A stretch of 64,000 bases of DNA from an uncultured Gammaproteobacteria bacterium (GTDB lineage Bacteria > Pseudomonadota > Gammaproteobacteria > CAYNNN01), in assembly GCA_964398665.1 (NCBI GenBank), contig CAYNNN010000001.1, positions 45,415 to 109,414 of the forward strand, in the 5' to 3' direction. A program made the position numbers and the translations under genes. The first letter of the stretch is position 1. Every line of letters starts with the position of its first letter. Positions 1 to 53,759 of this stretch are shown one piece after another. Under the pieces are notes generated by a model. It was not told the origin of the DNA, did no database searches, and saw only the letters and a program-made list of their open reading frames with translations.

Positions 1-301
1 CGCCCCAGGGTTTCACTACTGTGAACTGGATTCGGTGCAGGTCAAGGGCAAACAGCAGGCGGTGCGCATCTATACGCTGTTTGCAACAGAACCACCGCCC
101 TGGACGGGCCTGTTTCAGATGCTGTTGGCTCACTATCGCAGTCGCGCCTTTGCCGAAGCCCTGAATCTGGTCCAGGTCCTGCGCAACGACGGTCATGCGC
201 CCGCCGCCTTGCTGGCGTTATATGAGCAGCGCTGCGTACAGTTTCTCAACCAGCCACCGCCGCCTGACTGGAATGGCACCACCGCCCTGAGCAAGAAGTA
301 A
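1..301 (+). CDS. 3' end of an adenylate/guanylate cyclase-like protein (partial; N-terminus lies upstream of the window)
   Basis: The reading frame is open from base 1 and ends with ...VQVKGKQQAVRIYTLF..., which resembles the C-terminal beta-strand motif of class III cyclase domains. Only about 100 aa are visible. Confidence 0.35.
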   Translation, partial: APGFHYCELDSVQVKGKQQAVRIYTLFATEPPPWTGLFQMLLAHYRSRAFAEALNLVQVLRNDGHAPAALLALYEQRCVQFLNQPPPPDWNGTTALSKK

Positions 302-363: not shown

Positions 364-1596
364 TTACCCGAGTGCCTCAAACAGACCCAGGGGGCCAGGG
401 TAGGCAAATTCGGGAAAGACCGTTGCAAGCGCAGGATTCCCCAACCGGGTCGCAGCCAGCTCGGCCAGGACGGTGCGGTAGTCGGTCGTGACAGCCAGGT
501 CCAACCCTTGAAACAGGGCCGCAGCACTCAAGCCCGGCCAGGTGCCATAGACCCGCCCCCCATTGACTCCGCCGCCCATGACCAGCATGGCATTGGCATG
601 GCCGTGGTCGGTGCCGCCCGAGGCATTTTCCTTGACCCGACGCCCAAACTCGCTCATCGTCACCACAGTGACATTGGCCATCTGGCCACCCAGGTCCGCA
701 GCAAAAGCGGCCAATCCCTGGGCCAGTTCCGTCAGCAGGGGAGCCAGCTCTGCAGCCTGATTGTTGTGAGTGTCCCAGCCCCCCAGATCCACGCAGGCCA
801 CGCTCAGACCCAGATTGGCCTTGATCAGTTGTGCCGTCTGCATCAGCCCGGTACCAAAATCGGTATCGGGGTAAGTAGCGCCATTGGCCACCGGATATTG
901 CCCTGGGTTGGCAGCAGCCAGCAACTCCAGGGCAGCAAACGTTTGCTGGCTCTGGACATCCAGAAAAAGACTTCCATCATGCAGATTGCGCAGCCCATTG
1001 CCATAGGTCGTCAGGTCGGTCAGGCGGCTGCTCAGGGCAAATTCGGCAAAGGTATCCACGGCAGTGGCAGGCGCACCGCGTAAGGAGGGCTGGGTGGCCA
1101 CACCCATCCCCACGGCCCGGAAAGCAGAGGGATTCGTCTCGCCCAAACTGGCCAGGTAGCGACCCAACCAACCGGTAGTGGTGTGTTTGTTTCCCGGTGT
1201 ACCGCTTTCCATATAAGCCTGCGCATCGAAATGCGAGCGGCTATCCACGGTCAGGCCACTGGCATGGACAACAGCCAGGCTACCCTCGGCATAGTACGGC
1301 TGGATCGGGGCCAGATTAGGGTGCAGGCCAAAAAAACCATCCAGATTCAAGGCAGCGGCGGAGTTGCCTGCCTGGGGGGCAGCAATGGCCAGGGTCGGGC
1401 GGTTGCGGTAATAATCAGTGTCACCGTAGGGAATTATCATATTCAGGCCGTCCACCCCGCCGCGCTGGAATATACAGACCAGCACATCCCGCACGCTGGT
1501 CTGCTGGCTCCAGACCCAGCGCGGGGCTGCCAGGGTTCCGCCCAGGAGGGCACCGGCCTTGAGAAAATCCCGACGGTTCATGGTCAGATGGTTCAT
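364..1596 (-). CDS. DUF1501 family protein (Tat-signal, sulfatase-like fold)
   Basis: 410-aa ORF. The N-terminus MNHLTMNRRDFLKAGALLGG is a twin-arginine signal. An AGGAG sits 7 nt before the ATG. It lies 11 nt downstream of a DUF1800-like gene, the usual pairing. Confidence 0.8.
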   Translation of the reverse strand: MNHLTMNRRDFLKAGALLGGTLAAPRWVWSQQTSVRDVLVCIFQRGGVDGLNMIIPYGDTDYYRNRPTLAIAAPQAGNSAAALNLDGFFGLHPNLAPIQPYYAEGSLAVVHASGLTVDSRSHFDAQAYMESGTPGNKHTTTGWLGRYLASLGETNPSAFRAVGMGVATQPSLRGAPATAVDTFAEFALSSRLTDLTTYGNGLRNLHDGSLFLDVQSQQTFAALELLAAANPGQYPVANGATYPDTDFGTGLMQTAQLIKANLGLSVACVDLGGWDTHNNQAAELAPLLTELAQGLAAFAADLGGQMANVTVVTMSEFGRRVKENASGGTDHGHANAMLVMGGGVNGGRVYGTWPGLSAAALFQGLDLAVTTDYRTVLAELAATRLGNPALATVFPEFAYPGPLGLFEALG

Positions 1597-1606
1597 GAGC
1601 AGACTC

Positions 1607-3118
1607 CTAACGGTTTTGAAAATAGGCAGAAGCCAACAGCAGGCCCAGCAGGCCCGGCACCCGGTTGGCCAGAGCGCTGGCCTCCAGGACCGTGTCGGCT
1701 GAAGGGGCGCCCAGCGCGCTGATCAAATCATTGCGGTCGTTGTTGTTCAGGGTGCGGTGCAGCACCCGGCTGGCCAGTTGATCCACGATGCGGGCAGGGG
1801 TGTTGGCACCCCCCAGCAGGGCATTGAGGTCCACACGCAGCCCGGCAACCGCGTTTTCAGCCAGTTGCAAGCCCTGGTTCCAGCGATTCAACAAGCCGTT
1901 GGTCGTGGCCCAATACCCTGCCGTATCGGGGTAGCCGTTGGGTGGTTCCCAATCGAACGGGGCCTGACCCAGGGTGTCAAGGCTGCGCAGCAGGCTGGCC
2001 AGGCCCACGGCATCTGTCAGGCTCGCATCGGTCTGGCGCAAGGCTCCGATGGCAAACTCCCAGGGACGCTTGAATTTCAAATCAGCACTGGCCTCAAATT
2101 CCGGGGTGTTGAACAATGCCCGCAGGGTGCTGCGGATATCTCCCCCGCTTGCGCTGAAGGCTGCGCTGACTGCGCTGACTGCGGTGGGTGGGGGCGTATC
2201 GCTGATGAAGCGCCGCACCAGCTTGGTGGCAATGAATTGCGCCGTGGCCGGATGGGTGGCCAGAATGTCCAGCAGGCGCTGGCCTTCCTCCAGCCCGCCC
2301 CCAGCCGGAAAATCAATGCCCATGAAAGTCTTGGCCCCGGTATCGTGATTGGCCAGACTGAACTGGAAGGTGCCGTGTTGGGGCGTACCGCTGTAACGCC
2401 GCCCCAGATAGATTGTCCAGCCAGTCAGGATTCGGGCCACCGCCTGCACATCGGTCTGGGTATAACCGCCGTCCACGCCGAGCGTGTGCAGCTCCAGTAA
2501 TTCCCGGGCATAGTTTTCATTGGGTGCCGCAGCCGTGCTGACGTAGTTATCCAGGTAATACAACATCGCCGGACTTTGGGCCGAGGCCTCCAACAAATCC
2601 CGGAAATTCCCTAGGGCATGGGGCCGGATCACGGCGCGGTCATCCACGGTCTTGAGTGCCCGCAATGGGCCGTTGAGCTGATGGATGTTGAAGTGGTTAC
2701 TCCAGAAATCCACCATCACTTCATAAAGCTGACGGGTGCTGAACCAGGCCCGGTACAGCGTGGCGATGCGCAATTCCCGCACCAGCTCGACCCGCTGCAG
2801 GCTGCCGGAGTCAGCTTGTTGATCCAGCACCAACAAAGCATCGGCACTCAGGCTCAGGGTGCTGAAATTCTGGGCAATAAAACTGTCCACTGCGCTGTCA
2901 TCCAGGCTGGCGGGGTTGAGTTGTTCTTCCAGATAGGCGCCCCTGCCGATTTGTTGGAGGCGGCTTAAGTCCGCCGGCCGGATTCCAAAACTGATCCGGT
3001 TCAGCAGCAGGACATCGGCATCGGGGGCAGGCAGGGTATCAGCACGGGCATGACGGGCCGCCAGCGCAACGCCACCCAAGGCGGCCAGGAGCCAGGCACG
3101 TCGGGAGACAACAGACAT
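1607..3118 (-). CDS. DUF1800 family protein (secreted)
   Basis: Long ORF with an internal ATG at 3118 (MSVVSRRAWLLAALGGVALAA, a signal peptide) preceded by GGAG. The track ORF starts earlier at 3172. It has the DUF1800-like size and pairs with DUF1501. Confidence 0.75.
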   Translation of the reverse strand: MSVVSRRAWLLAALGGVALAARHARADTLPAPDADVLLLNRISFGIRPADLSRLQQIGRGAYLEEQLNPASLDDSAVDSFIAQNFSTLSLSADALLVLDQQADSGSLQRVELVRELRIATLYRAWFSTRQLYEVMVDFWSNHFNIHQLNGPLRALKTVDDRAVIRPHALGNFRDLLEASAQSPAMLYYLDNYVSTAAAPNENYARELLELHTLGVDGGYTQTDVQAVARILTGWTIYLGRRYSGTPQHGTFQFSLANHDTGAKTFMGIDFPAGGGLEEGQRLLDILATHPATAQFIATKLVRRFISDTPPPTAVSAVSAAFSASGGDIRSTLRALFNTPEFEASADLKFKRPWEFAIGALRQTDASLTDAVGLASLLRSLDTLGQAPFDWEPPNGYPDTAGYWATTNGLLNRWNQGLQLAENAVAGLRVDLNALLGGANTPARIVDQLASRVLHRTLNNNDRNDLISALGAPSADTVLEASALANRVPGLLGLLLASAYFQNR

Positions 3119-3306
3119 GGGAAACTCCACGAGGTAGTAAGGGGTAATTCCCCAACGCGGCAACCCCGGCATGGTTGACTCCCCGCACGGCGCGGCATGT
3201 CATGGCCCCAAAACGAGGCAGATCAACAGCGCTCAACGTCTATCATCAGTGCGTAATATAAGCAGATTATCATACCCCGTCCATCCAACAGCGCGGGGTT
3301 AGAATC

Positions 3307-5022
3307 ATGAGCACTTCCAGTAATAATGTATCAGCAGCCAAAGATCACGAAAAAGCACTCCTCTGGCGCTTACGCCAAGTCCTGAAGGATCAACACCAGG
3401 AAGTTACCTCATTTGCACGCTTGATCAATGATATGGATTATCGTATCGAGATCATCAAGCGCGCGCGTCTCTACGCCTCGCCTGAGCTGAACCGGATCAT
3501 CGAAGAATTGCAGCGCACTTCAGGCATCATCGCCACCGGCTCGGTCAGCACCGCAGCCGTTGCCGAACGTCAGGCGGCCATCCGGGCCGAAAAAGGCCAC
3601 GCGCACTCCAACACGATGCGCGGCGTGGTCATGGCCTTCACCCTCATCAGCGCAGCAGGGGCTGGTCTGGGGTTTATGGCCAGCATGGGCATGTTTCAAA
3701 CCGTTGTGCCAAAACAGCCCGGCGAGACCATAACTACCCCCGGCGAAACGCTGACCATCAGCGGCTCCATTCTGGAAAACACCACTTGGCGTGCCAAAAA
3801 CACCTATCTTCTTGAAAATCTGGTTTTTGTAGAAGCAGGTGCAATCCTGACAATTGAAGCAGGCACGCAAATTCTGGGTAAGCCTGGCTCAGCATTGATC
3901 ATTACCCGAGGGGCGCAAATCCAGGCCAGGGGAAATGCCGGCCAACCTGTGGTATTCACCAGTGCCCAACCGTCTGGCAGCCGCAAGCGCGGGGATTGGG
4001 GTGGCCTGGTCATGTTGGGCGCAGCCCCCGTCAATCGCAAAAAAGCAGTTGAGGACGCGAACGAAGTCGGCAGTGCCCACATCGAAGGCATTGCCGAAAC
4101 CGACAGCCGAGGGCGGTTTGGCGGAGCCAACAGCAACCATAACTGCGGGGTGCTGGAATATGTGCGCATCGAGTTTGCCGGATTCAAAATCGCTGCCAAT
4201 AATGAGCTCAACGGCCTGACACTGGGTGGCTGTGGTCGGGAGACGGTCATCAGTTATGTCCAGAGCCATCTGGGCGCCGATGATGGGGTTGAAGTATTTG
4301 GCGGAACAGTCGATTTGCGTAATATCGTCATTACAGGCGCCGATGACGACAGCCTGGATTGGGATATGGGCTGGCAGGGCCGTATCCAGTTCATGGTCAT
4401 TCAACAATACGCGGATGGTGGCGATGCGGGTATCGAAGCCGATAACTGGAAACAACATCCCGACGCCCAGCCCCGCTCCCAACCCATTATCTACAATGCC
4501 ACCTTGCTGGGATCGCGTGATGTAGGCAAAGACCAGCGTGCCGCAGTATTCCGCCTGGGGACTGGTGTGATCCTGCGCAACAGCATCATCACCGGCTTCC
4601 CCCAGGAAAGCCTGGATGTCCGCGACAAGGAAACCGCCGCGCTGTTCAAAAGCGGTGCTTCCAGCTTTGACGGCCTGATCATCTACGACATCAAGGGCCG
4701 CACGGGACCAGACGCGGCGACATACTTCCCCGAGGAAAAAGGGGAAAAAGATGATGATGGCGGCTTTGATGAAGCAGCGTATTTCAACTCGCCCAAGCGT
4801 GCCCGGTTCGTGGATCCGGGTCTCACCCAGGCAGCCTGGAACCTGACCCAGCCCAACTATACCCCGACGGGTACGGCTACCCTCAGTTATGTGGCACCAG
4901 TGCCCGTCGAAACGGGTGAAGCCATGGAATTCTGGAACGAATCGGCCGACTTCATCGGTGCGGTCCGGCCCGGGGCCACCCAGAGCTGGCTGGATGGTTG
5001 GACGGCCTTCCCGCTGAACTGA
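3307..5022 (+). CDS. hypothetical membrane-anchored protein with a coiled-coil N-terminus and a beta-helix-like C-terminal region
   Basis: 571-aa ORF. The N-terminal ~100 aa are charged and helical. One hydrophobic segment follows (VVMAFTLISAAGAGLGFMA). After that come repeats rich in G/D/T (GDWGGLVMLG, GADDGVEVFGG, GADDDSLDWDMGWQG). Confidence 0.5.
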   Translation: MSTSSNNVSAAKDHEKALLWRLRQVLKDQHQEVTSFARLINDMDYRIEIIKRARLYASPELNRIIEELQRTSGIIATGSVSTAAVAERQAAIRAEKGHAHSNTMRGVVMAFTLISAAGAGLGFMASMGMFQTVVPKQPGETITTPGETLTISGSILENTTWRAKNTYLLENLVFVEAGAILTIEAGTQILGKPGSALIITRGAQIQARGNAGQPVVFTSAQPSGSRKRGDWGGLVMLGAAPVNRKKAVEDANEVGSAHIEGIAETDSRGRFGGANSNHNCGVLEYVRIEFAGFKIAANNELNGLTLGGCGRETVISYVQSHLGADDGVEVFGGTVDLRNIVITGADDDSLDWDMGWQGRIQFMVIQQYADGGDAGIEADNWKQHPDAQPRSQPIIYNATLLGSRDVGKDQRAAVFRLGTGVILRNSIITGFPQESLDVRDKETAALFKSGASSFDGLIIYDIKGRTGPDAATYFPEEKGEKDDDGGFDEAAYFNSPKRARFVDPGLTQAAWNLTQPNYTPTGTATLSYVAPVPVETGEAMEFWNESADFIGAVRPGATQSWLDGWTAFPLN

Positions 5023-5063
5023 CGCTCACGCCACCCGGCGCGCTGGCCGGGTGGCTGCTGGAC

Positions 5064-6713
5064 TTAAGATTTACGCCGCCGCGCGGCACCAAAGCCCAAC
5101 AATAGACTGGCCGTCAGCGCCAGCGCATAAGGACTCAACGCCGGCACCGCCAGGGCAAAGTTGCCATCAATGCGGTAAATGGCCACCGTCCCGCTCACTT
5201 CGTTGGACAGAATCAGCAACGGTACCCCCGTGGGGCTTTGTTCCGGCGGAATGACCACCACGCCTTCAGGGCTGATATCGCCCGTTGCATTGGGTTCATA
5301 CAGCAAGAAATTGGGCGCAGCCGGGTTGCTGACATCATAGACCATCACCCCGCCCCCGGCCCGTTCTAGGGCTACAAACGCATAATCACTGCCGCCCAGA
5401 CGGCTGACCACGACCGATTCAGGCTCCGGTCCCTTATTGTCGCTCCGGGTGTCAAAATCAGCCGGATTGCCATTGTTGGCATTGAAAAACGTCGGCGTCT
5501 GGGTCGCCGTGCGCTGCTCAAAGAAATCGCCACTGTCAAACACCCGATTCCCGGTCGCTGCGTCCCAGATGGTGAAGCTCCGGGCCCCTAGCACAGGGAT
5601 CTGGGTAAACACCGCCGTGTTGGTGCTGCTGAACAGATTGCGGGTGATGGTGAGACGGCCCAGGTTGGCGTTTTGCTTCAGGGTCGCTTCCGTGGGGAAG
5701 GTCGCATCATCCAGGTCCACGCTGGAAACCCGGACTTCTTCTGCAAAGCCGGTATAGTCGCGGGCATCACCTTCATTGGCGGTTACAAAGAACACATTGC
5801 CACCGGTCTGGTACACCGCAATACCGTCTGGTTGGTATAGCCCCATGACAGGCCAGTTCTGGATCAGGATGCTGGGCGCATTGGCGGGGCCATCCCGGTC
5901 GCTGGGATCTAGACCATTGCCCGCCTGACTGTGATCCTTGAAGCCCAGGGCAATGATCCGTTCCACCTGATTCGTTTGCAGGTTGATGACTGCAACCGCA
6001 TTGTTTTCCTGAAGTGTGACAAAAGCGCGTGTTCCATCGGGGCTGATGGCAATGTACTCCGGCTCCAAATCCTGGGCTACACTGGCGTTGGGGCCAAAGA
6101 TGCGTACCGTGGCAGGGAGTTCGGCGTTGCGGGGCTGGCCCACGTTGAAGTCGGCAAATCCCACCGTCGTCACCGTGGCCGCAGGAATGCCACCACCGAT
6201 ATTGATGATGCTGACGGAGCCTTCCGGGTCCACGCTGTCAGCCTGACCATAAGAGTTGGGTTCACCTTCGTTGGCCGTCAGCACGCGCTGGCCATCGGGC
6301 GTGAAGGTCACCATATCGGGTAGCGCCCCCACATTCACCTGACCCAGTAAGGCCAGGGTGGTAGTGCTGTAAAATGCTACTAGGCCAGGGTTGGTCTTGG
6401 TTGTGGCAGCCACTGCGACAGCAGCCACGCCGTTCTTGATAGCCACGCTGTTGATCTCGCCACCCGGTGGATCCAACGTGGTTACCAGACTGGGCGCAGT
6501 GGGATCGCCGATGGCGATGACATCCACCGTCCCTGCCGCTGCATTGACCGTAAACAGACGGCCCGTCACCGGATCATAGGCCGAAATTTCAGCCGCTCCG
6601 GTGCCCAGACCGGTGTCAAAATGCCCCAGCAGCGTTAGCCCTGTGAGCGCAGCCTGTGCAGGTGCCGCATGGAGTACGCCCAGCACCGCAAGGATCAGCA
6701 GACGACGACGCAT
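5064..6713 (-). CDS. secreted beta-propeller protein (phytase-like / choice-of-anchor-I-like) with a C-terminal PEP-CTERM-like anchor tail
   Basis: 549 aa. It has a signal peptide (MRRRLLILAVLGVLHAAPAQA). The N-terminal region LTLLGHFDTGLGTGAAEISAYDPVTGRLFTVNAAAGTVDVI is typical of that family. The C-terminus ...PALSPYALALTASLLLGFGAARRRKS is Pro-containing, then hydrophobic, then Arg-rich. Confidence 0.55.
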   Translation of the reverse strand: MRRRLLILAVLGVLHAAPAQAALTGLTLLGHFDTGLGTGAAEISAYDPVTGRLFTVNAAAGTVDVIAIGDPTAPSLVTTLDPPGGEINSVAIKNGVAAVAVAATTKTNPGLVAFYSTTTLALLGQVNVGALPDMVTFTPDGQRVLTANEGEPNSYGQADSVDPEGSVSIINIGGGIPAATVTTVGFADFNVGQPRNAELPATVRIFGPNASVAQDLEPEYIAISPDGTRAFVTLQENNAVAVINLQTNQVERIIALGFKDHSQAGNGLDPSDRDGPANAPSILIQNWPVMGLYQPDGIAVYQTGGNVFFVTANEGDARDYTGFAEEVRVSSVDLDDATFPTEATLKQNANLGRLTITRNLFSSTNTAVFTQIPVLGARSFTIWDAATGNRVFDSGDFFEQRTATQTPTFFNANNGNPADFDTRSDNKGPEPESVVVSRLGGSDYAFVALERAGGGVMVYDVSNPAAPNFLLYEPNATGDISPEGVVVIPPEQSPTGVPLLILSNEVSGTVAIYRIDGNFALAVPALSPYALALTASLLLGFGAARRRKS

Positions 6714-6840
6714 AAAACCTCTTTGAATAGGAAAAACTCTGGAATTCTAGGGAGGACAGATGACGGGCCGATGACAATCGGCTGCCCAGCACCACATGAC
6801 AAGTGAACGCCCCAGGCCCGCACCAAGCGCTGCCCAATAC

Positions 6841-6899
6841 TTGATAGTGATTCGCATCCCTTGTATTATCAAGAATAGTTATTGCTATCGATAATAGTT
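6841..6899 (+). promoter_or_regulatory. tonB promoter region: sigma-70-like TTGATA-N17-TATTAT overlapped by Fur-box-like GATAAT/ATTATC hexamer array
   Basis: An AT-rich island sits in a GC-rich genome immediately 5' of tonB. TTGATA is at 6841-6846 and TATTAT at 6864-6869, with a 17-nt spacer. Hexamers GATAGT, ATTATC, AATAGT, TATCGA and GATAAT overlap the promoter. Confidence 0.4.
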
Positions 6900-7635
6900 G
6901 GCTATGCAGGTAATGGTTCCCAGATACAATCCCTGGCAGGGGTGGCTGGGTTTAGTTCTCGCCCTGGGTTTGCACGCGAGTGCCTTGTACGGACTGCTAC
7001 TCTTGCGCCCCGCTCGGACGCCGCCCGTACCGGTGACCTGGATCAGCCTGGCAACCCTCGCGCCTCAGCCCCAACCGGTACCAACCCCGGTGGTCGAAAC
7101 GCCCAGGGTGGAAACACCGCTCCCCGAACCTGCGCCGGTAGCGGCCGTGGTAACCCCGAAAGCTACTGTAGCCCGGCAGCCCGAGGTCAAGCCGGAACCC
7201 AAGCCCCGGCCCAAGCCGCAGCCTAAACCCAAGGCAAAATCGGTACCTACACCCCGTCAGCAACCGCCGGTGGCCACACCAGTCGAAACTGCGCCGCCGG
7301 TGGCCCAGACCCAACCGGTGCCCCAGCCGGTGGCAACACCCCTGGACCCTGTGATCCCGGCCCGGTTCAATGCGGCCTACCTGAACAACCCTGCCCCTGC
7401 CTATCCGGCCCTGGCCCGACGCCTGGGTGAACAGGGCAAAGTCCTGTTACGTGCCCATGTCCTGCCCAGCGGCAAGCCGGAGACTGTCGAGATTCAGGAA
7501 TCTTCCGGCAGCCAGCGTCTGGATGTTGCCGCCCGCGATGCGGTAGCCCGCTGGCAGTTCATTCCAGCCCGGCAAGGCGAAGTGGCCCTGGCCGCCTGGG
7601 TGGTGGTTCCCATTCATTTTCATCTGGAACGTTAA
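6898..7635 (+). CDS. tonB: energy transducer TonB
   Basis: N-terminal TM segment, a Pro-rich PKP/EPxP repeat spacer, and a C-terminal TonB domain (NPAPAYPALARRLGEQGKVLLRAHVLPSGKP...). Confidence 0.85.
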   Translation: MAMQVMVPRYNPWQGWLGLVLALGLHASALYGLLLLRPARTPPVPVTWISLATLAPQPQPVPTPVVETPRVETPLPEPAPVAAVVTPKATVARQPEVKPEPKPRPKPQPKPKAKSVPTPRQQPPVATPVETAPPVAQTQPVPQPVATPLDPVIPARFNAAYLNNPAPAYPALARRLGEQGKVLLRAHVLPSGKPETVEIQESSGSQRLDVAARDAVARWQFIPARQGEVALAAWVVVPIHFHLER

Positions 7636-7636
7636 C

Positions 7637-8377
7637 ATGCTGAGTTTCAATCCCTACGATTTCTGGGCACGCAGCGATGCCATTGCCCATGCGGTGCTGA
7701 TTATCCTGGCGCTCTTGTCAGTGGCCAGCTGGAGCATCATTTTTGCCAAAAGCGGGCGCCTGAGCCGGATGCGCTGGCTGGCGGGTCCGGCATTGAATCA
7801 ATTCTGGTCAGCGCCGCGCTGGGAGGTAGGCTTGTCGGCCTTGCGCAAGCTGCCTTTATTTGCCCATCTGGCCCAAAGCGGTTGGCTGGCCGTACGGCAT
7901 CAACAACAGCATTGCCAGGGTCAACCACACCTGGACGCCGCCTTGCCCCTGAGCGATGCGGTCACCCGCGCCTTGCGTCAGGCGCTACATCAGGCCAGCC
8001 ATCAACTGGAAAGCGGCCAGACCTTGTTGGCTTCCGTGGGTTCTACCGCGCCCTTCATCGGCCTGCTGGGTACTGTCTGGGGTATTTATCATGCGCTGGC
8101 CCAGATCGGCCTCAGTGGTCAGGCCAGTCTGGAGCAGGTCGCCGGTCCAGTGGGCGAGGCCCTGATCATGACGGCTATCGGCCTGTTTACAGCCATTCCA
8201 GCCGTGCTGGCCTTCAATGCCTTCAATCGCACCCAGCGGGCCATCCTGGCGGAACTGGATGCATTTGCCTATGATCTACACGCCTATTTCACAACTGGCC
8301 AACCCTTGTGCAAGGCCGCACCGGCCAGTGCCCCGGAAACGCCAGGCCCGGCAGTCCTGGTGGCGGAGCAAATCTGA
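7637..8377 (+). CDS. exbB: MotA/TolQ/ExbB proton channel protein
   Basis: Three-TM ExbB/TolQ topology and motifs. Its stop codon overlaps the start of the next gene (ATGA). Confidence 0.85.
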   Translation: MLSFNPYDFWARSDAIAHAVLIILALLSVASWSIIFAKSGRLSRMRWLAGPALNQFWSAPRWEVGLSALRKLPLFAHLAQSGWLAVRHQQQHCQGQPHLDAALPLSDAVTRALRQALHQASHQLESGQTLLASVGSTAPFIGLLGTVWGIYHALAQIGLSGQASLEQVAGPVGEALIMTAIGLFTAIPAVLAFNAFNRTQRAILAELDAFAYDLHAYFTTGQPLCKAAPASAPETPGPAVLVAEQI

Positions 8378-8787
8378 TGGCCTTTGGACATTTTGAGTCA
8401 GGGGATACCCAGCCCATGGCCGACATCAATATCGTACCGCTGGTAGACGTGATGCTGGTTCTGTTGATCATCTTCATCGTCACCACGCCACTGCTGACCC
8501 AGACCTTGAAAGTGGAACTCCCGCAAACTCAGGCCCAGGCTTCCAGTCCACCCCCGCCGGCGCTGCGGGTCAGCCTGGACGCCGAGTCCCGGCTGTATGT
8601 GGAAACGGAAGCGCTGGAGTGGGCGCAGTTGGGGCCACGTCTGGCCCAGGCGGCAGCGCAGCAGCCGCAACCCGAACTACATCTGAGCGTGGATAAGACC
8701 ACGCCTTATCAACGTCTGGCGGAATTGCTCGATGCCGCCCGGCAGGCCGGATTGAGCAAAGTCGGCTTTGTCACGCAACCTCAATAG
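8377..8787 (+). CDS. exbD: biopolymer transport protein ExbD/TolR
   Basis: ATG at 8377 overlaps the exbB stop. The sequence ...ADINIVPLVDVMLVLLIIFIV... is the typical ExbD N-terminus. About 136 aa. Confidence 0.85.
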   Translation: MAFGHFESGDTQPMADINIVPLVDVMLVLLIIFIVTTPLLTQTLKVELPQTQAQASSPPPPALRVSLDAESRLYVETEALEWAQLGPRLAQAAAQQPQPELHLSVDKTTPYQRLAELLDAARQAGLSKVGFVTQPQ

Positions 8788-8794
8788 GCATTTC

Positions 8795-8962
8795 ATGAAC
8801 AAGCCTCCTGCACGCCCAGCACCCGGTGCAGCGACAACCGAACCCCCATTGCTGCACTCACACGATTTGTTTCGGCGTGGGAATGTGGTCCGCATTGAGC
8901 ATCAGGGCCAGATTTACCTGCTCCGGCTGACCCGTGAACACAAGCTGATTTTGAACAAGTAG
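8795..8962 (+). CDS. hemP: hemin uptake protein HemP-like small protein
   Basis: About 55 aa ending in ...RRGNVVRIEHQGQIYLLRLTREHKLILNK, the characteristic HemP C-terminus. It lies immediately after tonB-exbBD. The track start at 8768 is a TTG that overlaps exbD, so the ATG at 8795 was chosen. Confidence 0.55.
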   Translation: MNKPPARPAPGAATTEPPLLHSHDLFRRGNVVRIEHQGQIYLLRLTREHKLILNK

Positions 8963-9046
8963 CCAGGTTGGCTGGATCAGGTCTCTTGCTTGCGTCCCGG
9001 CCAACAGCTTCTATGCTTAGGGAGTCGGCTACTTGAGGGCAACAGC

Positions 9047-9997
9047 ATGGCGAAGCGTTATGGCGTAGTATTGGGTTTATGGTGTTTGGGCTGGACGATG
9101 CCAGGATGGGCATCAGATCCTAAAAGCACTGAAATTCAGGCGATCGTCCAGGCTGCCGAGCAGGCGCTGGTTCAGGATTATCTCGAATATCAGCGTGCAG
9201 ATTCCACCAAGACCCGCCGGGCCTTCTTTCTTGCCCGTGGTGCTGCCGCCGCGCACTGGCGACAGTTTGCAACACAGGGCGATGTCCGCGCCCAATTTCT
9301 GTGGGCAACCCAACTAGCCAATGGCTGGGGGACCGCACTCAATGAGCCGGAAGCCCTGAGCTGGTATCAGCGGGCGGCCGAACAGGGGCACGCGCCCAGT
9401 CAGGTCAAGCTGGGGACGTTGTATGCCAATGGTCGTGGGACGCCCCAGGACGATGCTCAGGCCGTCATCTGGTATCGCAAGGCGGCCGAACAGGGCGATG
9501 CCGAAGCCCAGACCCGGCTGGCGCTGATGTACGAAAATGGCCGGGGGATCGGGCGGGACCTGGCAACTGCGATGCAGTGGTATCGCAAAGCCGCAGAGCA
9601 GGGCTACGCCGCTGCACAGTATAACCTGGGCGTGGGTTATGCCGATGGTCTGGGTCTGGCACAGGATCAGGCCGAGGCCGTGCGCTGGTATCGCAAGGCT
9701 GCCGAGCAGGACTACGATCTGGCCCAATATGCACTGGGGTTCATGTATGCCCAGGGCTGGGGCATCCCCCGTGATGATCGGACGGCGGTGGCCTGGTATC
9801 ATCGGGCCGCCTTGCAGGACATGGCAGCTGCTCAGGCGGCGCTCGGCTTCATGTACGAGCATGGCCGGGGCGTACCCCAGGATCGGCAGGAGTCCCTGCG
9901 CTGGTACCGCCTGGCGGCAGCCCAGGGCGATGAGGACGCCCAGCGGGCCTTGCAAAACCGTAATCCGGGGGTGGGCTGGAATTGGTGGCCGTTTTAG
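9047..9997 (+). CDS. Sel1-repeat (TPR-like) periplasmic protein
   Basis: A signal peptide is followed by about 7 Sel1 repeats (AxAQxxLGxMYxxGxGVxQD...WYRKAAEQG). GAGGG precedes the ATG at 9047. Confidence 0.8.
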   Translation: MAKRYGVVLGLWCLGWTMPGWASDPKSTEIQAIVQAAEQALVQDYLEYQRADSTKTRRAFFLARGAAAAHWRQFATQGDVRAQFLWATQLANGWGTALNEPEALSWYQRAAEQGHAPSQVKLGTLYANGRGTPQDDAQAVIWYRKAAEQGDAEAQTRLALMYENGRGIGRDLATAMQWYRKAAEQGYAAAQYNLGVGYADGLGLAQDQAEAVRWYRKAAEQDYDLAQYALGFMYAQGWGIPRDDRTAVAWYHRAALQDMAAAQAALGFMYEHGRGVPQDRQESLRWYRLAAAQGDEDAQRALQNRNPGVGWNWWPF

Positions 9998-10066: not shown

Positions 10067-13000
10067 ATGGCTACTGACCACACCGTTAGCACCGATCTCC
10101 TGCAGGGCCTGTCGCCCCTGCAAAACCTGCCCCAGGCAAGCCTGACTGCCCTGGCGGCGCAGCTGACCGTCGAAACCTGGGCCAAGGGTCGTTACCTGTT
10201 TCGCCAGGGAGATGCGCTGGAACACTTTGTCTATCTCCTGACCGGCACCGTCCTGCTGCTGCAGGACGGTCAGGAGATGGATACCCTGACGGGTGGCACG
10301 GCAGCAGCCCGCTTCGCCCTGGCACATCACCAGCCCCGGCGCCTGTCTGCCAAAGCCCAGACTGATATCACGCTGTTGCGCATTCCGCTCCACGCCGTTC
10401 CCCAAGCCCCTTCCAGCCTGGAACAAACCGGCGGGCGGGAGGAATGGCTGACCCGGATGCTGCAACACTGGGTCTTTCAGAAAATCCCGAGCAGCCATGT
10501 AGATACCATTCTGGCCCGCATGACGCCCATCAGCGTGCAAAAGGGCCAGATCATCATCCGCCAGGGCGAAAAAGGCGACTATTACTACGTGATCAAGCGG
10601 GGGCGTTGTCAGGTCACACGCCGTACCTCCGGCGGGGAACGCGAAGTGGTACTCGCAGAACTGGAAGTAGGCGAGAGTTTTGGGGAAATGTCCCTGCTCT
10701 CGCGGGGGGAACGCAACGCCACCATCACAATGTTGACGGCGGGGGAGCTGCTGCGCCTCAGTGTGCAGGATTTTACCACCCTGATCCGCGACCCGATTCT
10801 GAAACCGGTCGGTTACCTCCGGGCCATGCAGCTTCAGGCCCAGGGCGCACGCTGGGTGGATGTGCGCAGCGAGGCTGATTATCGCAGTGGCTGCCTGCCG
10901 GGTGCGCTCAATCTCCCGGTGCAGTCTCTGCGCGGACAACTGGACGATTTACGTACCGACCAGCGCTATCTCATTTACTGTGCCGACGGAGTAGCCAGCG
11001 CTACCGTCGCCTTCCTGATGTGCAAGCGCGGTTTTGATGCCTATTTGCTGGAAGGTGGCCTGACCAGTGCGCCCGCTACCGCCTTGACCCACCCCACTCC
11101 TCTGGCACCTCCACTGGCATCCCCTCCCGTCAGCCCTGCCCCCGCACCAAGCGATTATCGTGGTGAGGCCACCGAGCGCGACCTACGCCAGTTGCAGGCT
11201 CAATATGAGCGGGCGCAGGCGGCCCGCCTGGCCGCTGAACGGGCCCGACAGGCTGAAGAGCAGGAAAGCGAACGGCTGCGTACCGAACTGGCCGAGCAGT
11301 TGTTGGGCCAGCAGGAGAGCCGTACCTTGCTGGCGGAAAAGGACCGCCAGATTGCGCAACTGGAACAGCAGGGCAACGAGCTGCGCAGCGCTGTGGAACA
11401 AGCCCGGGCCGAAATTGCCAAAGCGTATGCCGAAGCCGAAGTACAGATGCGGCTACGTCAGGAAGAAGGCAAGTTTTTGCGGCTGGAGCTGGGCGAACTG
11501 CAAAAGCGCGGTGAAAAGGAACAGCGGGTCCTGCAGGAAACCGAACGACAGTATGCTCAGGCTCAGCTTGACCTTGAACGGCTCCGGGATCAGCACGAGC
11601 TGCAATTGCAGCAGGCCGAACAGGCTTTGGCTCAGGCCAGCAAGGCACAGGCCGAACTGCACCAGACCCTGACTCAGACCCGCACGGAAGCCAGCCAGCA
11701 ATTGGTGCCTCTGCAACAGGAATGTGCAACGCTGCGCAAAACCCATGCTGAATTGACGGCCCAACTGGAGGCTGCGACTGCGGCGCGTGACCAGGCCACC
11801 CAGGAACTGGAGTTGTTGTGGCAAGGTGCGCACCGGGCCGTGGGTGGCGATGATAAGCAACGCTTTGATCTGATAGATGCCCGTGCCCGGCTGTCTGAAG
11901 CAGCCAAGCATCAGGCCGTGCTGGAGCAACGCTATCAGGCGGCCATGGCCGAACAGACGCGCTTGCAGATTCGCCTTGAAGCCTTGCAAAGTCAGCACGG
12001 GGCCGCTACCGAGACCCAGGCAGCGGAAGCCAGTGACCTGCAAGCCCGCCTGCGGAGTCTGGAACAGACCCACGGCGAAACAGCGGAGGCCCTGGAAGCC
12101 GCCCGGCATCAGGTCGAGTATTTCCGTGACCAGACCCAGAAAATCAGGCAGGAATTCGAGGATTACAAAACCCAGTTGCAGGTGCGCGAGCAAGCGCTGG
12201 AGGCGGAACTGAGCGAAGCGCGCCAGCAGCAGCAGCTGGCCATGAGCAGTGCATTGCAGTTTGATGGCCTGGAACTGGAACGTATGCGCCGCGAGGCGAC
12301 CGAGGCCCGCCGCCAGAGCGATGATTTCCAGAAACAGCTGAATGCCCTACGCAAGGCAAAATCCGAGCTGGAAATGGAGCATCGGCTCCAGAAACAGGAG
12401 GCAGACACCGCACGCCAGCAAGTGCAGGCGCTGGAGAAAAAGCAGGCCGGACATCAGGAAGAGCTGGACAAGAAGGAGCATCAGCGCATCAAGGCCGAAC
12501 AGGATAATGTCAAATTGCGTGATCAGCTGGCCGGGATGGTGGCCAAGTTGCAGAAACAATCCGGGCAGGCCGTACAGGAAGCAAGCCGCCCGGTTGCGGC
12601 AGGCGCGGGGCTGGCCCTGGGTCTGGGTACATTGTTGGGCATGGTTCTGGGTGCCGGCGGCCTATGGGGCTGGAATTATTACCAGAACCAGCGTGCGGCC
12701 GAAGTGGTGAGCCTGGATGAACCAACCCGCTCGGCGCCGGAATCCCAGACACCGGTGCCCACGATCAAGACCGAGCAAACGCCGGAGCCTGCGCCGCGCA
12801 GCGTGGCCAAGGTGCTGCGCAGCTTTCAGGATCGGCTGCGTGACGGGGGCGAAGGCCCAAAAATGCTGAGTCTGGGCGGCGGTAGCTTCACCATGGGCCG
12901 TCCGCATCCGACAGATGCCGATCAACAGCCCGCTCATGCGGTCAGACTGGCCGGATTTGCCCTGAGTCAGTATGAAACCAGTTTTGCCGACTATGACCGC

Positions 13001-13537
13001 TTTGCGCGCAGCACCGGGCGCGCCTTGCCCGCCGACAACGGCTGGGGACGCGGTAATCAGCCGGTCATCAACGTCAGCTGGAACGATGCGCAGGCGTATA
13101 CCCAGTGGCTCAGCCAGCAAACCGGCCAGCGCTACCGGTTACCCACGGAAGCGGAGTGGGAGTATGCGGCCAGTGGCGGTGTGGATGCCATCTACTGGTG
13201 GGGCATGACGCCTGACAAACGCCTGGTGCATTGTTTTGACTGCGCCGGCGGATATAGCGGCAAACGACCGCTACCTCTGGGCCAGCTCAAGGCCAACCCG
13301 CTCCAGTTTTATGAAATTTTGGGGAACGTCAAGGAATGGGTACAGGACTGTTATGCACCCAACTATCAGCAAGCTTCGGAAACGGGCAATGCCTTCCTGG
13401 CACCCAACTGTCCGGAACGTGTCATCCGGGGTGGATCTTATAATACTCCTATCAATAATTTGCGCACGGCACGCCGGGAACGTGCAGCTGAAGATTTTCG
13501 CACGGACAGCCTGGGTTTTCGGGTCGCGCGTGATTAA
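10067..13537 (+). CDS. multidomain membrane protein: 2x cNMP-binding + rhodanese + ~450-aa coiled coil + TM + periplasmic FGE/SUMF1 (formylglycine-generating-enzyme-like) domain
   Basis: 1156 aa. It has a canonical CAP-type cNMP pocket (FGEMSLLSRGERNATI) and a rhodanese motif (VDVRSEADYRSGCLPGALNLP...YCADGVAS). Next comes Q/E/A/R-rich heptad sequence, then the TM segment LALGLGTLLGMVLGAGGLWGW. The C-terminus carries FGE motifs (GGSFTMG...WNDAQAYTQWLS...YRLPTEAEWEYAA...RGGSY...FRTDSLGFRV). Confidence 0.8.
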   Translation: MATDHTVSTDLLQGLSPLQNLPQASLTALAAQLTVETWAKGRYLFRQGDALEHFVYLLTGTVLLLQDGQEMDTLTGGTAAARFALAHHQPRRLSAKAQTDITLLRIPLHAVPQAPSSLEQTGGREEWLTRMLQHWVFQKIPSSHVDTILARMTPISVQKGQIIIRQGEKGDYYYVIKRGRCQVTRRTSGGEREVVLAELEVGESFGEMSLLSRGERNATITMLTAGELLRLSVQDFTTLIRDPILKPVGYLRAMQLQAQGARWVDVRSEADYRSGCLPGALNLPVQSLRGQLDDLRTDQRYLIYCADGVASATVAFLMCKRGFDAYLLEGGLTSAPATALTHPTPLAPPLASPPVSPAPAPSDYRGEATERDLRQLQAQYERAQAARLAAERARQAEEQESERLRTELAEQLLGQQESRTLLAEKDRQIAQLEQQGNELRSAVEQARAEIAKAYAEAEVQMRLRQEEGKFLRLELGELQKRGEKEQRVLQETERQYAQAQLDLERLRDQHELQLQQAEQALAQASKAQAELHQTLTQTRTEASQQLVPLQQECATLRKTHAELTAQLEAATAARDQATQELELLWQGAHRAVGGDDKQRFDLIDARARLSEAAKHQAVLEQRYQAAMAEQTRLQIRLEALQSQHGAATETQAAEASDLQARLRSLEQTHGETAEALEAARHQVEYFRDQTQKIRQEFEDYKTQLQVREQALEAELSEARQQQQLAMSSALQFDGLELERMRREATEARRQSDDFQKQLNALRKAKSELEMEHRLQKQEADTARQQVQALEKKQAGHQEELDKKEHQRIKAEQDNVKLRDQLAGMVAKLQKQSGQAVQEASRPVAAGAGLALGLGTLLGMVLGAGGLWGWNYYQNQRAAEVVSLDEPTRSAPESQTPVPTIKTEQTPEPAPRSVAKVLRSFQDRLRDGGEGPKMLSLGGGSFTMGRPHPTDADQQPAHAVRLAGFALSQYETSFADYDRFARSTGRALPADNGWGRGNQPVINVSWNDAQAYTQWLSQQTGQRYRLPTEAEWEYAASGGVDAIYWWGMTPDKRLVHCFDCAGGYSGKRPLPLGQLKANPLQFYEILGNVKEWVQDCYAPNYQQASETGNAFLAPNCPERVIRGGSYNTPINNLRTARRERAAEDFRTDSLGFRVARD

Positions 13538-13805
13538 GGGCGGGCGTTCCGGTGGGTCGTGGCCACCGGGACGAGCACTGGGCTAACCCCGTGGTAGTTA
13601 AGCAACAGTTGCGCAATGAATACATATTGTGGCAGAATTGCTGTAGCCGAATGTGAGCCACGATGCTGGCGTGACGGTTTAACGCGAGGCGTAGCTGTCA
13701 GCCCGGTTGCGGTCAAGTTCGGGCATGCAGTTTGGGGCTGCCAGCCGTTGCGAACAAGCAACGTCAGTGGATTGGCAACGGGAATCTTTATCAAAATCTG
13801 AGGTA

Positions 13806-14483
13806 ATGGCGATGCAAAAACAATTTGGTCTGTTGGGTGCAGTCTCCGCATTGACTGCGGCCTGCTTTGCGCTGGCTTTTTCGGCAGCGGTCGCTGCTGA
13901 CAAGGGCTATTGGGACGAGGCCGTCAAGGATCAGGTCTGGAAAACCGGGTTTGGGGAATGCTGGCAGGCGGCTGATGGCAAACCCAATGCCGCTTGCGAT
14001 GGCAAGAAGGCAGAACCCAAGAAGGAAGAACCGGTCAAGGTCGCTGATGGCGATGATGACGGCGACGGTGTACCCAATTCGCGTGACAAGTGCCCTGGCA
14101 CGCCCAAAGGCGTGCGCGTGGACGCGGATGGCTGTGAATTGCCTGAAATCATTACCCTCAAGGGCGTGCAGTTTGACTTCAACTCTGCCAAGCTGCGTCC
14201 GGATGGCCGTGTGACCCTGGATAAGGCTGCGGCCATGTTCCAGAAGCACTCCGACATCCAGGTCGAGATTGCGGGCCACACCGACAGCGTGGGTAGCAAT
14301 GCCTATAACCAGAAGCTCTCGCTGCGCCGCGCCAACTCGGTCAAGGCCTATCTGGTCAGCCAGGGTGTTGATGCCAGCCGTCTGACGGTCAAGGGTTTTG
14401 GGGAAGAAAATCCCATTGCCAGCAACAAGACCGCTTCCGGTCGTGCCCAAAACCGTCGGGTTGAACTGGTCATCCAGAAGTAA
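13806..14483 (+). CDS. OmpA family protein with thrombospondin type-3 (Ca-binding) repeats
   Basis: GAGG precedes the ATG at 13806. There is a signal peptide, then D-rich TSP3 motifs (DGDDDGDGVPNSRDKCPGTPKGVRVDADGC), then an OmpA C-like domain (NSAKL...GHTDSVGSNAYNQKLSLRRANSV). Confidence 0.8.
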   Translation: MAMQKQFGLLGAVSALTAACFALAFSAAVAADKGYWDEAVKDQVWKTGFGECWQAADGKPNAACDGKKAEPKKEEPVKVADGDDDGDGVPNSRDKCPGTPKGVRVDADGCELPEIITLKGVQFDFNSAKLRPDGRVTLDKAAAMFQKHSDIQVEIAGHTDSVGSNAYNQKLSLRRANSVKAYLVSQGVDASRLTVKGFGEENPIASNKTASGRAQNRRVELVIQK

Positions 14484-14508: not shown

Positions 14509-14532
14509 CCCCCTTCCAACCCCGCTCCGGCG
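14509..14532 (+). terminator. Rho-independent terminator after the OmpA-family gene
   Basis: Stem ccccgc-tccg-gcgggg is followed by TTTTTTAT. A second GC hairpin, gggggc-ttgat-gccccc, lies just upstream at 14486-14502. Confidence 0.6.
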
Positions 14533-14613
14533 GGGTTTTTTATGGGCGAGTCTCGCAGCCAGTCCGAGCTATCCGCTAAAATCCGGCAGCATCCCCTCCA
14601 TCCGAGAGTAGTT

Positions 14614-27683: not shown

Positions 27684-27760
27684 TTAGGCGCGTAGCTCAG
27701 TGGTAGAGCATCACCTTGACATGGTGGTGGTCGGTGGTTCGATCCCACTCGCGCCTACCA
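27684..27760 (+). tRNA. tRNA-Val (anticodon GAC)
   Basis: Cloverleaf folded by hand. Acceptor stem AGGCGCG/CGCGCCT with CCA, D-arm AGCTCAGTGGTAGAGC, anticodon loop TTGACAT, T-arm GGTTCGATCC. Confidence 0.85.
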
Positions 27761-27771
27761 GCCTGATTCAT

Positions 27772-27850
<79 letters not shown>

Positions 27851-45611: not shown

Positions 45612-45662
45612 GGGGTAACCTCAATTAACATTCAAATCAATATCAGAAGCTGTCTGGCGCAC

Positions 45663-50119: not shown

Positions 50120-50156
50120 CGTGGGATGGGCGAGGCACCCGGCCCCGCCCAGGTTC

Positions 50157-51449: not shown

Positions 51450-51452
51450 AGG

Positions 51453-53183: not shown

Positions 53184-53254
53184 ACGTCCAGCAAATCACT
53201 ACCGAGGAAGGTAGTTAGATTGTAGCGCCAGACGCGGCTTTTACAAGCGCTTGG

Positions 53255-53680: not shown

Positions 53681-53707
53681 GGTGAGGACTCCAGAACGCC
53701 AAAGACA

Positions 53708-53729
53708 GCACCTGCCCTGGGGCAGGTGC
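53708..53729 (-). other. strong GC hairpin between pilin 2 and pilin 1 (possible attenuator/partial terminator)
   Basis: gcacctgccc-tg-gggcaggtgc is a 10-bp perfect stem. On the minus-strand RNA it is followed by UGUCUUUGGCGUUC, an imperfect U-tract. Confidence 0.35.
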
Positions 53730-53759
53730 CTGCATCAGCCTGAATGCCAGGCGCAGGTC

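Follow-up and report, generated by a model that had tools for sequence, protein, structure and literature searches.

A bacterial membrane protein family combining a cyclic nucleotide-binding and rhodanese head, a long helical stalk and a predicted periplasmic FGE-fold domain

What could a bacterial protein do that carries cyclic nucleotide (cNMP)-binding and rhodanese folds at one end and, behind a long stalk and one transmembrane (TM) segment, a domain with the fold of formylglycine-generating enzyme (FGE) at the other? This question is raised by a gene at positions 10067..13537 (+ strand, as are all features located below) of a 64,000-nucleotide stretch of DNA from an uncultured Gammaproteobacteria bacterium (GenBank assembly GCA_964398665.1, contig CAYNNN010000001.1), the whole of which is hereafter called the window. 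An earlier note, made from the window alone, had described the product as an unusual and uncharacterized protein of 1156 aa and had proposed that it acts as a transmembrane signalling or enzyme module. Our analysis revealed that it represents a real, conserved family of bacterial membrane proteins with an unusual combination of ordinary domains. All of the domains are well known one by one; literature searches on their combination retrieved no paper describing the architecture and no experimental literature.

Architecture and family

The reading frame runs uninterrupted from an ATG start and encodes 1156 aa plus a stop codon, as given in the open reading frame (ORF) list and as read in the window. 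A Shine-Dalgarno-like motif (GGGAG) lies 8 nt 5′ of the ATG, and the G+C content of the gene (0.62) is like that of its surroundings (~0.60). Searches with Pfam, counting matches above the curated cut-offs, detected cNMP_binding in two stretches (the best at aa 156-241, E 8e-33), Rhodanese at aa 255-333 (E 3e-12) and FGE-sulfatase at aa 930-1155 (E 3e-48; profile positions 2-255 of 255), which backed both the cNMP and the FGE-fold assignments of the earlier note. The FGE motifs quoted there (WNDAQAY, LPTEAEWEYAA and RGGSY) were all found on the translation, and the order of parts proposed there, from the N- to the C-terminus, was borne out: tandem cNMP-binding folds, rhodanese, helical stalk, one TM segment and FGE-fold domain.

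That the long frame is an artefact of assembly or annotation joining two genes was refuted for the window and deserves practically no credence. The frame is continuous here, an independent public assembly encodes the identical 1156-aa protein, and the whole architecture recurs in at least 44 protein clusters at 50% identity, drawn from many sources. One locus (L090) could be cited in favour of such an artefact, since its FGE-like domain is encoded by a separate 294-aa ORF (11660-12544) that overlaps the gene for head, stalk and TM segment (P0040) by 4 nt. As the names of its contigs point to a long-read assembly, a frameshift is as possible there as a natural gene split.

A search of 5.8 billion proteins for relatives returned 31 proteins of 1156-1839 aa in which all three Pfam families occur and about 30 others with cNMP-binding and rhodanese domains and a long extension but no FGE domain. 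Full-length relatives of the window protein share 80%, 61% and 34% identity with it. When the head alone was compared exhaustively with 1.84 billion cluster representatives, 1131 hits were obtained at E <= 1e-30; among the best 150 of these, 44 possess the complete set of head, stalk, TM segment and FGE-like domain and measure 978-2026 aa, 21 terminate in a TM anchor with nothing behind it, and 77 have a long extension without a TM segment, many of the last perhaps being incomplete metagenomic gene calls. The architecture is thus uncharacterized, as the earlier note had it, and recurrent, so that the word unusual holds only in a relative sense. Automated annotation labels such proteins either 'SUMF1/EgtB/PvdO family nonheme iron enzyme' or 'cyclic nucleotide-binding domain-containing protein'.

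The named members come from metagenome-assembled genomes (MAGs) of Gammaproteobacteria, Pseudomonadota or Burkholderiales and from the isolate Methyloterricola oryzae, whose form is without the FGE domain. In GTDB, the closest relatives of the periplasmic domain were found in Thiohalobacteraceae, Thiocapsa, Chromatiaceae, Ectothiorhodospiraceae, Methylococcaceae, Crenothrix, Ca. Parabeggiatoa and Ca. Thiomargarita. The family occurs mostly in uncultured sulfur-oxidising and methanotrophic Gammaproteobacteria. As to the window itself, the GTDB scan gave no locus nearly identical to it, and the Ffh protein encoded there has, apart from one identical copy, just three relatives at 85-94% identity, the next matches dropping to about 71% in MAGs of Gammaproteobacteria and Chromatiales.

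Domains along the polypeptide

The assignment of the head (aa 1-335) as a tandem of cNMP-binding folds like that of the regulatory subunits of PKA and PKG is strongly supported: residues 15-245 matched the cyclic nucleotide-binding (CNB) tandem CNB-A/B of these subunits both in sequence (E 6e-22) and in structure (Foldseek E 1e-19). The second cNMP-binding domain (aa 125-245; 10439..10801), which gave the best Pfam match and also resembles PKA and PKG by sequence and fold, is canonical. Its phosphate-binding cassette, FGEMSLLSRGERNATI (aa 205-220; 10679..10726), was located on the translation and in the family alignments, in which G206, R216, N217 and A218 are invariant and T219 is invariant or nearly so, while E207 never varies in alignment A1 and is kept in at least 90% of alignment A2, the latter comprising 61 stand-alone heads and the window protein's own head. 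On sequence, this domain possesses the Gly-Glu, Arg and Thr/Ser of a cNMP-receptor cassette (FGE...R-x-A-T).

The first cNMP-binding-fold domain (aa 15-112; 10109..10402) was recognized from the second Pfam stretch, from a beta-sandwich in the AlphaFold2 models and from motif counts, and it is degenerate. At the cassette it reads ARFALAHHQPRRLSAKA, where Gly-Glu is missing, Arg takes the place of the Glu and two extra residues follow PR; motif comparison across the family revealed no canonical phosphate-binding cassette in this domain, and the variant pattern R82...QPRxxSA (RxxxAxxQPRxxSA) is itself conserved. Judging from these residues, domain 1 may bind a ligand other than that of domain 2, or none. 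Of the tandem domains with a canonical pocket that the earlier note had described, the two folds and the cassette at aa 205-220 stand, but only the second site is canonical. The head-only model reached a mean predicted local distance difference test score (pLDDT) of 89.8 and a predicted template modelling score (pTM) of 0.67.

A single-domain rhodanese (aa 250-335; 10814..11071; Pfam E 3e-12) follows directly after the C-helix of cNMP domain 2. It starts about 5 residues past that helix, and the junction is modelled with a pLDDT of 93-98 in the head-only model, which strongly supports a predicted connection of the two domains without a flexible linker. The motif YCADGVAS, which the earlier note had taken to hold the active-site Cys, was confirmed at aa 304-311, with the active-site residue at Cys305 (codon at 10979..10981). 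This residue aligns without gaps, and with equal loop length, to the catalytic Cys65 of GlpE. The Cys is kept in 30 of the 31 FGE-bearing members and in 26 of 32 other relatives (56/63 together), and it is invariant in all 62 sequences of alignment A2. On sequence, the domain has both the rhodanese fold and a catalytic Cys opening a six-residue loop; the loop reads CADGVAS in the window protein versus CDTGRRS in most of the family.

That the cNMP-cNMP-rhodanese head is a self-contained functional unit is strongly supported, because the same three-domain protein exists widely on its own: free proteins of about 355 aa, 33-41% identical over the whole head, were found in at least 120 clusters. 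Among solved structures, none covers CNB and rhodanese domains together, the best query-normalised template modelling score (TM-score) being 0.39. In three genomes (loci L091, L092 and L093), the stand-alone protein of about 350 aa is encoded at 6001-7071, convergent to a pilZ-holB-tmk-mltG-pabC-pabB cluster and with differing genes on the other flank. The attempt to read a function from these three neighbourhoods was abandoned, as the housekeeping synteny is uninformative.

The head is followed by a Pro/Ala-rich linker (aa 336-367; 11072..11167) that is predicted to be disordered from its composition and from a pLDDT below 50 for residues 345-370. Neither its sequence nor its length is conserved across the family. 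Many long-form relatives (P0004, P0007, P0012, P0024, P0027, P0028 and P0031) share a short motif in this post-rhodanese linker, examples being AEIIDFNQN, AEVIDFDKG, ADVINFTRA and AEIISFKGP; it is absent from the window protein and its two closest relatives. It could be a docking motif.

The helical stalk (aa 368-835; 11168..12571) was delimited by AlphaFold2 secondary structure and heptad score. The AlphaFold model, which the earlier note had proposed as a check, shows it as four long helices at residues 368-404, 419-590, 597-730 and 737-835 (37, 172, 134 and 99 aa). A crude heptad score over residues 365-840 was 0.624 against 0.500 +/- 0.018 in composition-matched shuffles (z ~7). The heptad signal along the stalk is patchy, so that a coiled-coil-like helical stalk of ~470 aa is the safe wording for what had been called a ~450-aa coiled coil. 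No internal repeats were found in the stalk. If fully extended, the modelled stalk would reach up to roughly 65-70 nm. The distance from rhodanese to TM segment is 507 aa in the window protein, 507-1136 aa (median 968) in the FGE-bearing members and 318-1256 aa in the TM-anchored forms without FGE domain, one doubtful TM call being left out. Compared with 17 distant members by region, the window protein showed 26-54% identity in the head, 14-24% in the stalk and 30-71% in the periplasmic domain.

Hydropathy analysis of the translation identified one hydrophobic segment only, VAAGAGLALGLGTLLGMVLGAGGLWGW (aa 843-869; 12593..12673; Kyte-Doolittle value 1.98), in agreement with the single TM segment proposed earlier; neither a signal peptide nor a hydrophobic segment was found at the N-terminus. 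In 30 of the 31 FGE-bearing relatives a single TM segment is found at the equivalent place, some 300 aa from the C-terminal end. Summed over the 31 members, the 15 residues flanking this segment contain 87 Lys and Arg on the N-terminal side versus 19 on the C-terminal side. The part after the segment has exactly four Cys in every member inspected, the conserved Cys lying only on the C-terminal side. Because of this charge bias, the conserved single TM segment and the four Cys after it, the prediction of a bitopic inner-membrane protein with the N-terminus inside, the C-terminus outside and the FGE-fold domain in the periplasm is well supported, and the cytoplasmic and periplasmic placements of the earlier note are backed across the family.

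Behind the membrane, a Pro/Thr/Glu-rich periplasmic linker (aa 870-915; 12674..12811; pLDDT below 50) leads to the C-terminal domain. Across the family this post-TM linker spans 42-128 aa and is Pro-rich and non-conserved, and both linkers are variable and of low complexity in all 31 members, with a pLDDT below 50 in the model of the window protein.

The C-terminal FGE-fold (PvdO-like) domain (aa 916-1156; 12812..13534) is assigned by the Pfam match given above and by its match to PvdO, and FGE structures match it at E ~1e-21. The active site of the Streptomyces coelicolor FGE consists of Cys-272, Cys-277, Ser-269 and Trp-234, the Cys pair being essential (PMC2459300); according to PMC2459300 and PMC5324649, FGE requires two active-site Cys (CxxxxC after RGGS), which bind Cu(I). 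By residue count against PMC2459300, the active-site Trp is the one in GNxWEW. When the window domain was aligned with this enzyme, Cys-272 fell into a three-residue deletion, Cys-277 was replaced by Ile1129 and Trp-234 by Lys1089 (Gln in most relatives), and only Ser-269 was kept, as Ser1124; the Cys pair is absent from all 31 relatives. The catalytic pair and copper residues, which the earlier note had suggested checking, are thus not retained. Because the Cys pair and the Trp are missing, the domain can neither synthesize formylglycine nor bind Cu(I) in the manner of FGE, and an active FGE was ruled out by alignment: what had been called an FGE/SUMF1 domain has the FGE fold but is not a formylglycine-generating enzyme. 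A PvdO orthologue was rejected as well, as the NCBIfam model of PvdO scored 128.6 bits against a cut-off of 500 and no pyoverdine genes lie nearby. A variable protein of a diversity-generating retroelement was also considered and dismissed, since blastn of 13200-13560 against the window found only itself and no template repeat.

The domain contains two other Cys pairs. One is a family-invariant CxxC, CFDC (Cys1056-x-x-Cys1059; 13232..13243), seen in alignments and translation, within the family consensus ANCFDCGSxWDG; the same loop reads ANIWQG in FGEs. The other consists of Cys1095 (in DCY) and Cys1115 (in NCPERV), both within 13349..13411, is invariant in alignment A1, and falls on positions that are also Cys in the PvdO alignment. 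Among 86 other FGE-like domains from GTDB, the four positions showed the patterns --CC (30), CCCC (27), none (16) and a few singletons; as singletons are few, these are two co-occurring pairs, the CxxC pair being present together in 27 of 86, rarely singly, and the Cys1095/Cys1115 pair in at least 57 of 86. Judged by its sequence, the CxxC may be redox-active, bind a metal or form a structural disulfide. In the model the loop has a pLDDT below 50, which makes its three-dimensional position unreliable, and the idea that it lines the FGE active site was dropped, since the active-site Trp lies in GNxWEW and not in ANIWQG.

The fusion partners of the nearest FGE-like domains are a Ser/Thr kinase, PP2C phosphatases, an array of six TIR domains or nothing more than a helical region, and fusions to caspase occur as well; the earlier statement that bacterial FGE-like domains sit on Ser/Thr kinases proved right for this subtype, which also occurs on PP2C phosphatases, TIR arrays and caspases. 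Caspase fusions have been reported (PMC3501461). In the literature, FGE folds without the catalytic residues are regarded as modules for binding or sensing: FGE-like domains serve as sensors of STAND proteins (PMC13581612), and FGE-like immunity proteins of type VI secretion systems bind their effector (bioRxiv 10.1101/2021.05.21.445229). In a Ca. Parabeggiatoa MAG (locus L014, 881-7042), a 2054-aa protein with six TIR domains and a ThsB-like TIR match ends in an FGE-like domain closely related to that of the window protein.

Mode of action and its alternatives

Our tentative preference, which stops short of conviction, is for a cNMP-regulated rhodanese head with a tether to the envelope, which a periplasmic binding domain would provide. 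When cAMP or cGMP binds at domain 2, the C-terminal helix of this domain would move, as in other cNMP-binding domains, and this movement would switch the adjoining rhodanese, either in the persulfide/thiol chemistry of Cys305 or in the binding of a partner. Regulation of an adjoining domain by a CNB domain has precedents in mycobacterial Pat, PKA-R and Epac. The stalk, the TM segment and the periplasmic domain would carry no rigid conformational signal; they would act as a tether between head and envelope and probably bring about dimerisation of the head, whose location would be set by what the periplasmic domain binds. This domain would be a binding module, as is presumed for the most closely related domains, which occur on kinases, PP2C phosphatases and TIR proteins. 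A tether is favoured over a rigid signal wire because floppy linkers, disordered in the model and variable in sequence, flank the stalk and because the stalk length varies freely. The FGE-less relatives, which keep head and stalk and often end in a bare C-terminal TM anchor, were counted for the tether as well. The concerted transmembrane signalling module of the earlier note appears doubtful, given low-complexity, non-conserved linkers on both sides and a stalk that ranges over 507-1136 aa at 14-24% identity.

Several points weigh against the tethered, cNMP-regulated head. Ligand binding, sulfur transfer, dimerisation, topology and localisation are all predictions, and the disorder of the linkers is deduced solely from composition and from low pLDDT in a shallow alignment. 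With a pTM of only 0.67, the head model does not fix where domain 1 sits with respect to the other domains. The loop CADGVAS is devoid of the basic residues (arginines) of the consensus CDTGRRS, so that the catalytic competence of the rhodanese in the window protein is uncertain; since seven relatives have Ser in place of the Cys, the fold may serve for binding or regulation instead of catalysis. Conservation is highest in the periplasmic domain (up to 71% identity), and its invariant CxxC would suit an enzymatic or redox function as well as a binding module.

If the protein were instead an outside-in receptor, the periplasmic domain would sense an envelope or extracellular ligand and signal through a parallel dimeric coiled coil to the head, which would integrate the periplasmic signal with cNMP and give its output via the rhodanese. 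The closest FGE-like domains do sit at the extracytoplasmic end of single-pass kinases, PP2C phosphatases and TIR arrays, the periplasmic domain is strongly conserved and helical stalks are common signal conduits. Such a receptor is nevertheless unlikely, as disordered, variable linkers separate the head from the stalk and the TM segment from the periplasmic domain, the poorly conserved stalk varies about two-fold in length, many relatives have head and stalk without any periplasmic domain, and the head occurs elsewhere as a free protein. Another alternative is a cytoplasmic scaffold or landmark in the manner of FimV/HubP, in which the rod would position or space cellular structures with respect to the membrane and the cNMP and rhodanese folds would act mainly as regulated docking sites and not as an enzyme. 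In line with this explanation, the stalks are very long and range from 318 to 1256 aa in the wider family, some variants are tail-anchored and others apparently soluble, some members have Ser for the rhodanese Cys, and the genes lie in chromosomal surroundings of a housekeeping kind, 5 of the 8 neighbourhoods having a divergent HU-like gene. We consider it rather unlikely: the presence of the rhodanese Cys in 56/63 members and in all 62 sequences of A2 argues for chemistry, no homology to any known landmark protein was seen, and the synteny comes mostly from related genomes and is weak evidence.

The conserved Cys residues of the periplasmic domain could also point to inside-out control, that is, to a periplasmic PvdO-like oxidoreductase or CxxC redox/metal enzyme whose activity or assembly is governed by cytoplasmic cNMP. 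PvdO is the best match in both PDB and NCBIfam, the CxxC and the second Cys pair are invariant, and this domain is the most conserved region; the PvdO model, however, scored only 129 bits against the 500-bit cut-off with no pyoverdine genes nearby, the activity of PvdO itself was not demonstrated in vitro (bioRxiv 10.1101/2021.05.21.445229), and the FGE active-site Cys pair and Trp are absent. As the same CxxC subtype on kinases and phosphatases suggests sensing, and flexible linkers make allosteric control across the membrane unlikely, we judge this explanation improbable. An anti-phage or conflict sensor-effector, drawn by analogy with the FGE-like domains on TIR, caspase and STAND proteins, is disfavoured and seems very improbable. 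Relatives of the periplasmic domain do occur on six-TIR and caspase proteins and FGE-like sensors in defence STANDs (PMC13581612), but the 1156-aa protein matched no defence model of PADLOC-DB at E <= 1e-3 and has no recognisable toxic effector domain, and its gene lies among ffh, glmU, glmS and tonB-exbBD, or beside rpe-gph-trpEGDC in the long forms, with a G+C content like its surroundings.

A more ambitious idea, which we regard as quite unlikely, is that of a new kind of trans-envelope device in which a rod of 30-150 nm, anchored in the inner membrane, would link a periplasmic redox- or metal-active CxxC site, on an FGE fold without the copper-binding Cys pair, to a cytoplasmic, second-messenger-gated rhodanese. 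If this were true, a single persulfide-forming Cys would combine signals from cAMP/cGMP with the redox or sulfur status of the envelope, which would fit the concentration of the family in sulfur-oxidising and methanotrophic Gammaproteobacteria.

If the tethered, cNMP-regulated rhodanese is the correct explanation, the rigid fusion of a cNMP tandem to a rhodanese would tie second-messenger signalling to sulfur/persulfide chemistry, in a unit that is free in many Gammaproteobacteria and membrane-tethered in the window protein. To our knowledge, few bacterial cNMP receptors outside the CRP-type regulators are understood. The family further provides helical rods of 318-1256 aa, anchored in the membrane and fitted with identical end domains, as a natural series in which the use of long coiled coils as bacterial spacers can be explored, and a further case of an FGE fold stripped of its copper site and reused outside the cytoplasm, here with a conserved CxxC. 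Domain shuffling of such a sort is common in bacteria; the value of the finding lies in a well-defined, testable and sizeable family.

Genomic context and comparison with known systems

The gene stands on one strand in the order tonB, exbB, exbD, hemP-like ORF, sel1, the 1156-aa gene and an ompA-family gene, and sppA-like, ffh, glmU and glmS genes are further neighbours in the window. The first four (6898..8959) were assigned by Pfam and by the same order in L084/L085, the loci of the 80% relative. The small hemP-like ORF (8840-8959), located between exbD and the Sel1 gene, is 97% identical over 40 aa to the hemP of L084 (tblastn), and its presence suggests that the tonB-exbBD cluster is linked to haem or iron uptake. 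The Sel1-repeat protein (8990..9997, likely true start near 9047; Pfam E 2e-58) has six repeats and is 81% identical to the neighbour gene in L084. The earlier note had placed a Sel1 gene immediately upstream, correctly for the window, but it is a neighbour only in the 80% relative; a role as conserved partner was rejected, since it is absent beside L002 (the 61% relative), L086 and all long forms. The OmpA-family protein (13707..14483, likely start 13807; Pfam) contains a thrombospondin type-3 repeat, which is calcium-binding, and its gene also lies 3′ of the homologue in L084/L085 and in L002, being conserved only within the short-form clade. A PADLOC match of this neighbour to Zorya ZorB was discounted, as it arises only via the generic OmpA/MotB peptidoglycan-binding domain. 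Just 3′ of the ompA-family gene, a hairpin with a T-run (14518..14537), found by consensus scan only, is the first strong terminator-like one downstream of tonB; a promoter-like site (consensus only) precedes tonB.

The 3′ end of a gene for a HAMP and class III nucleotidyl-cyclase protein lies at 2..298 (79% identity to the C-terminus of the L084 cyclase by tblastn) and is a possible source of cNMP. In L084/L085, which have the same gene order, the cyclase gene stands directly upstream of tonB; in the window, ~6.5 kb of other genes (364-6713) separate the two. This insert comprises a DUF1501/DUF1800 pair, a 571-aa ORF without Pfam match (3307-5022) and a choice-of-anchor-I protein (5064-6713) bearing an IPTL-CTERM sorting signal.

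Among more distant relatives the context changes. In L002 the ompA neighbour alone is retained, and a divergent HU-like gene lies upstream; in L086, the locus of the 34% relative, the gene follows a divergently encoded dCache-GGDEF-EAL protein; and the four long-form loci have in common another region, of housekeeping character, with GspA-GspB, YccV, TerB, a divergent HU-like gene, the gene itself, Rieske (3/4), DUF6763 and rpe-gph-trpEGDC (3/4). The HU-like gene thus recurs in two otherwise unrelated contexts. Elsewhere in the window, a replicative helicase DnaB gene (38663-41299) is interrupted by an intein with a LAGLIDADG homing-endonuclease domain, and two adjacent tRNA genes (27686-27845) gave the sole Rfam matches at the gathering threshold. 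The G+C content dips to 0.49 at 46000-48000, over a PMT_2-type glycosyltransferase ORF (45345-47477) and a 597-aa ORF without Pfam match; these adjoin type IV pilus genes (49259-60691), including a PilB-like ATPase (51453-53183) and a PilS-like kinase (59102-60691), and the region may be a variable pilin-modification island.

Compared with known systems, the head shares the tandem CNB-A/CNB-B arrangement of PKA/PKG regulatory subunits, whereas its domain 1 has no cassette Gly-Glu, a kinase-inhibitor segment is missing and a rhodanese follows instead. Mycobacterial Pat is a cAMP-regulated acetyltransferase in which a cNMP domain regulates the fused enzyme domain. As in Pat, a cNMP-binding domain is here fused directly to an enzyme domain, and the Pat model (NCBIfam NF058543) matches aa 136-225; unlike Pat, that domain is a rhodanese and not GNAT, and the match, confined to the cNMP domain, reaches 62 bits against a cut-off of 460. 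GlpE and PspE have the same rhodanese fold, Cys305 falling on GlpE Cys65, but the equivalog score is 28 against a 102-bit cut-off, the loop CADGVAS is without basic residues, and the domain is part of a multidomain protein.

At the other end, catalytic FGEs share the fold and the motifs PV..VSW.DA.AY, RLPTEAEWE, GN..EW and RGGS, and differ in the active-site positions described above, of which the window domain retains only Ser-269. PvdO of Pseudomonas aeruginosa (5HHA) is the best match to aa 916-1156 (E 3e-30, ~32% identity, TM-score 0.72); both are devoid of the FGE catalytic Cys pair, both have Cys at DC[WY] and C-x-x-[VI]-R, and both are periplasmic, for the window domain by prediction. 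In contrast, PvdO is a free soluble protein of the pyoverdine cluster without the CxxC, and its counterpart here forms the C-terminus of a 1156-aa membrane protein with no pvd genes nearby. The closest relatives of the periplasmic domain (36-50% identity) belong to single-pass proteins with kinase, PP2C, TIR or caspase modules, where it has the same position after the TM segment and several carry the same CxxCGSxW motif. With an FGE fold devoid of the catalytic Cys, placed after one TM segment and preceded by a cytoplasmic module, the window protein fits, by its sequence features, into this known class, in which a single-pass protein bears an extracytoplasmic FGE-like domain. The difference is that the signalling or effector enzymes of the other members lie near the membrane, whereas its own cNMP/rhodanese head is set off by a stalk of ~500 aa.

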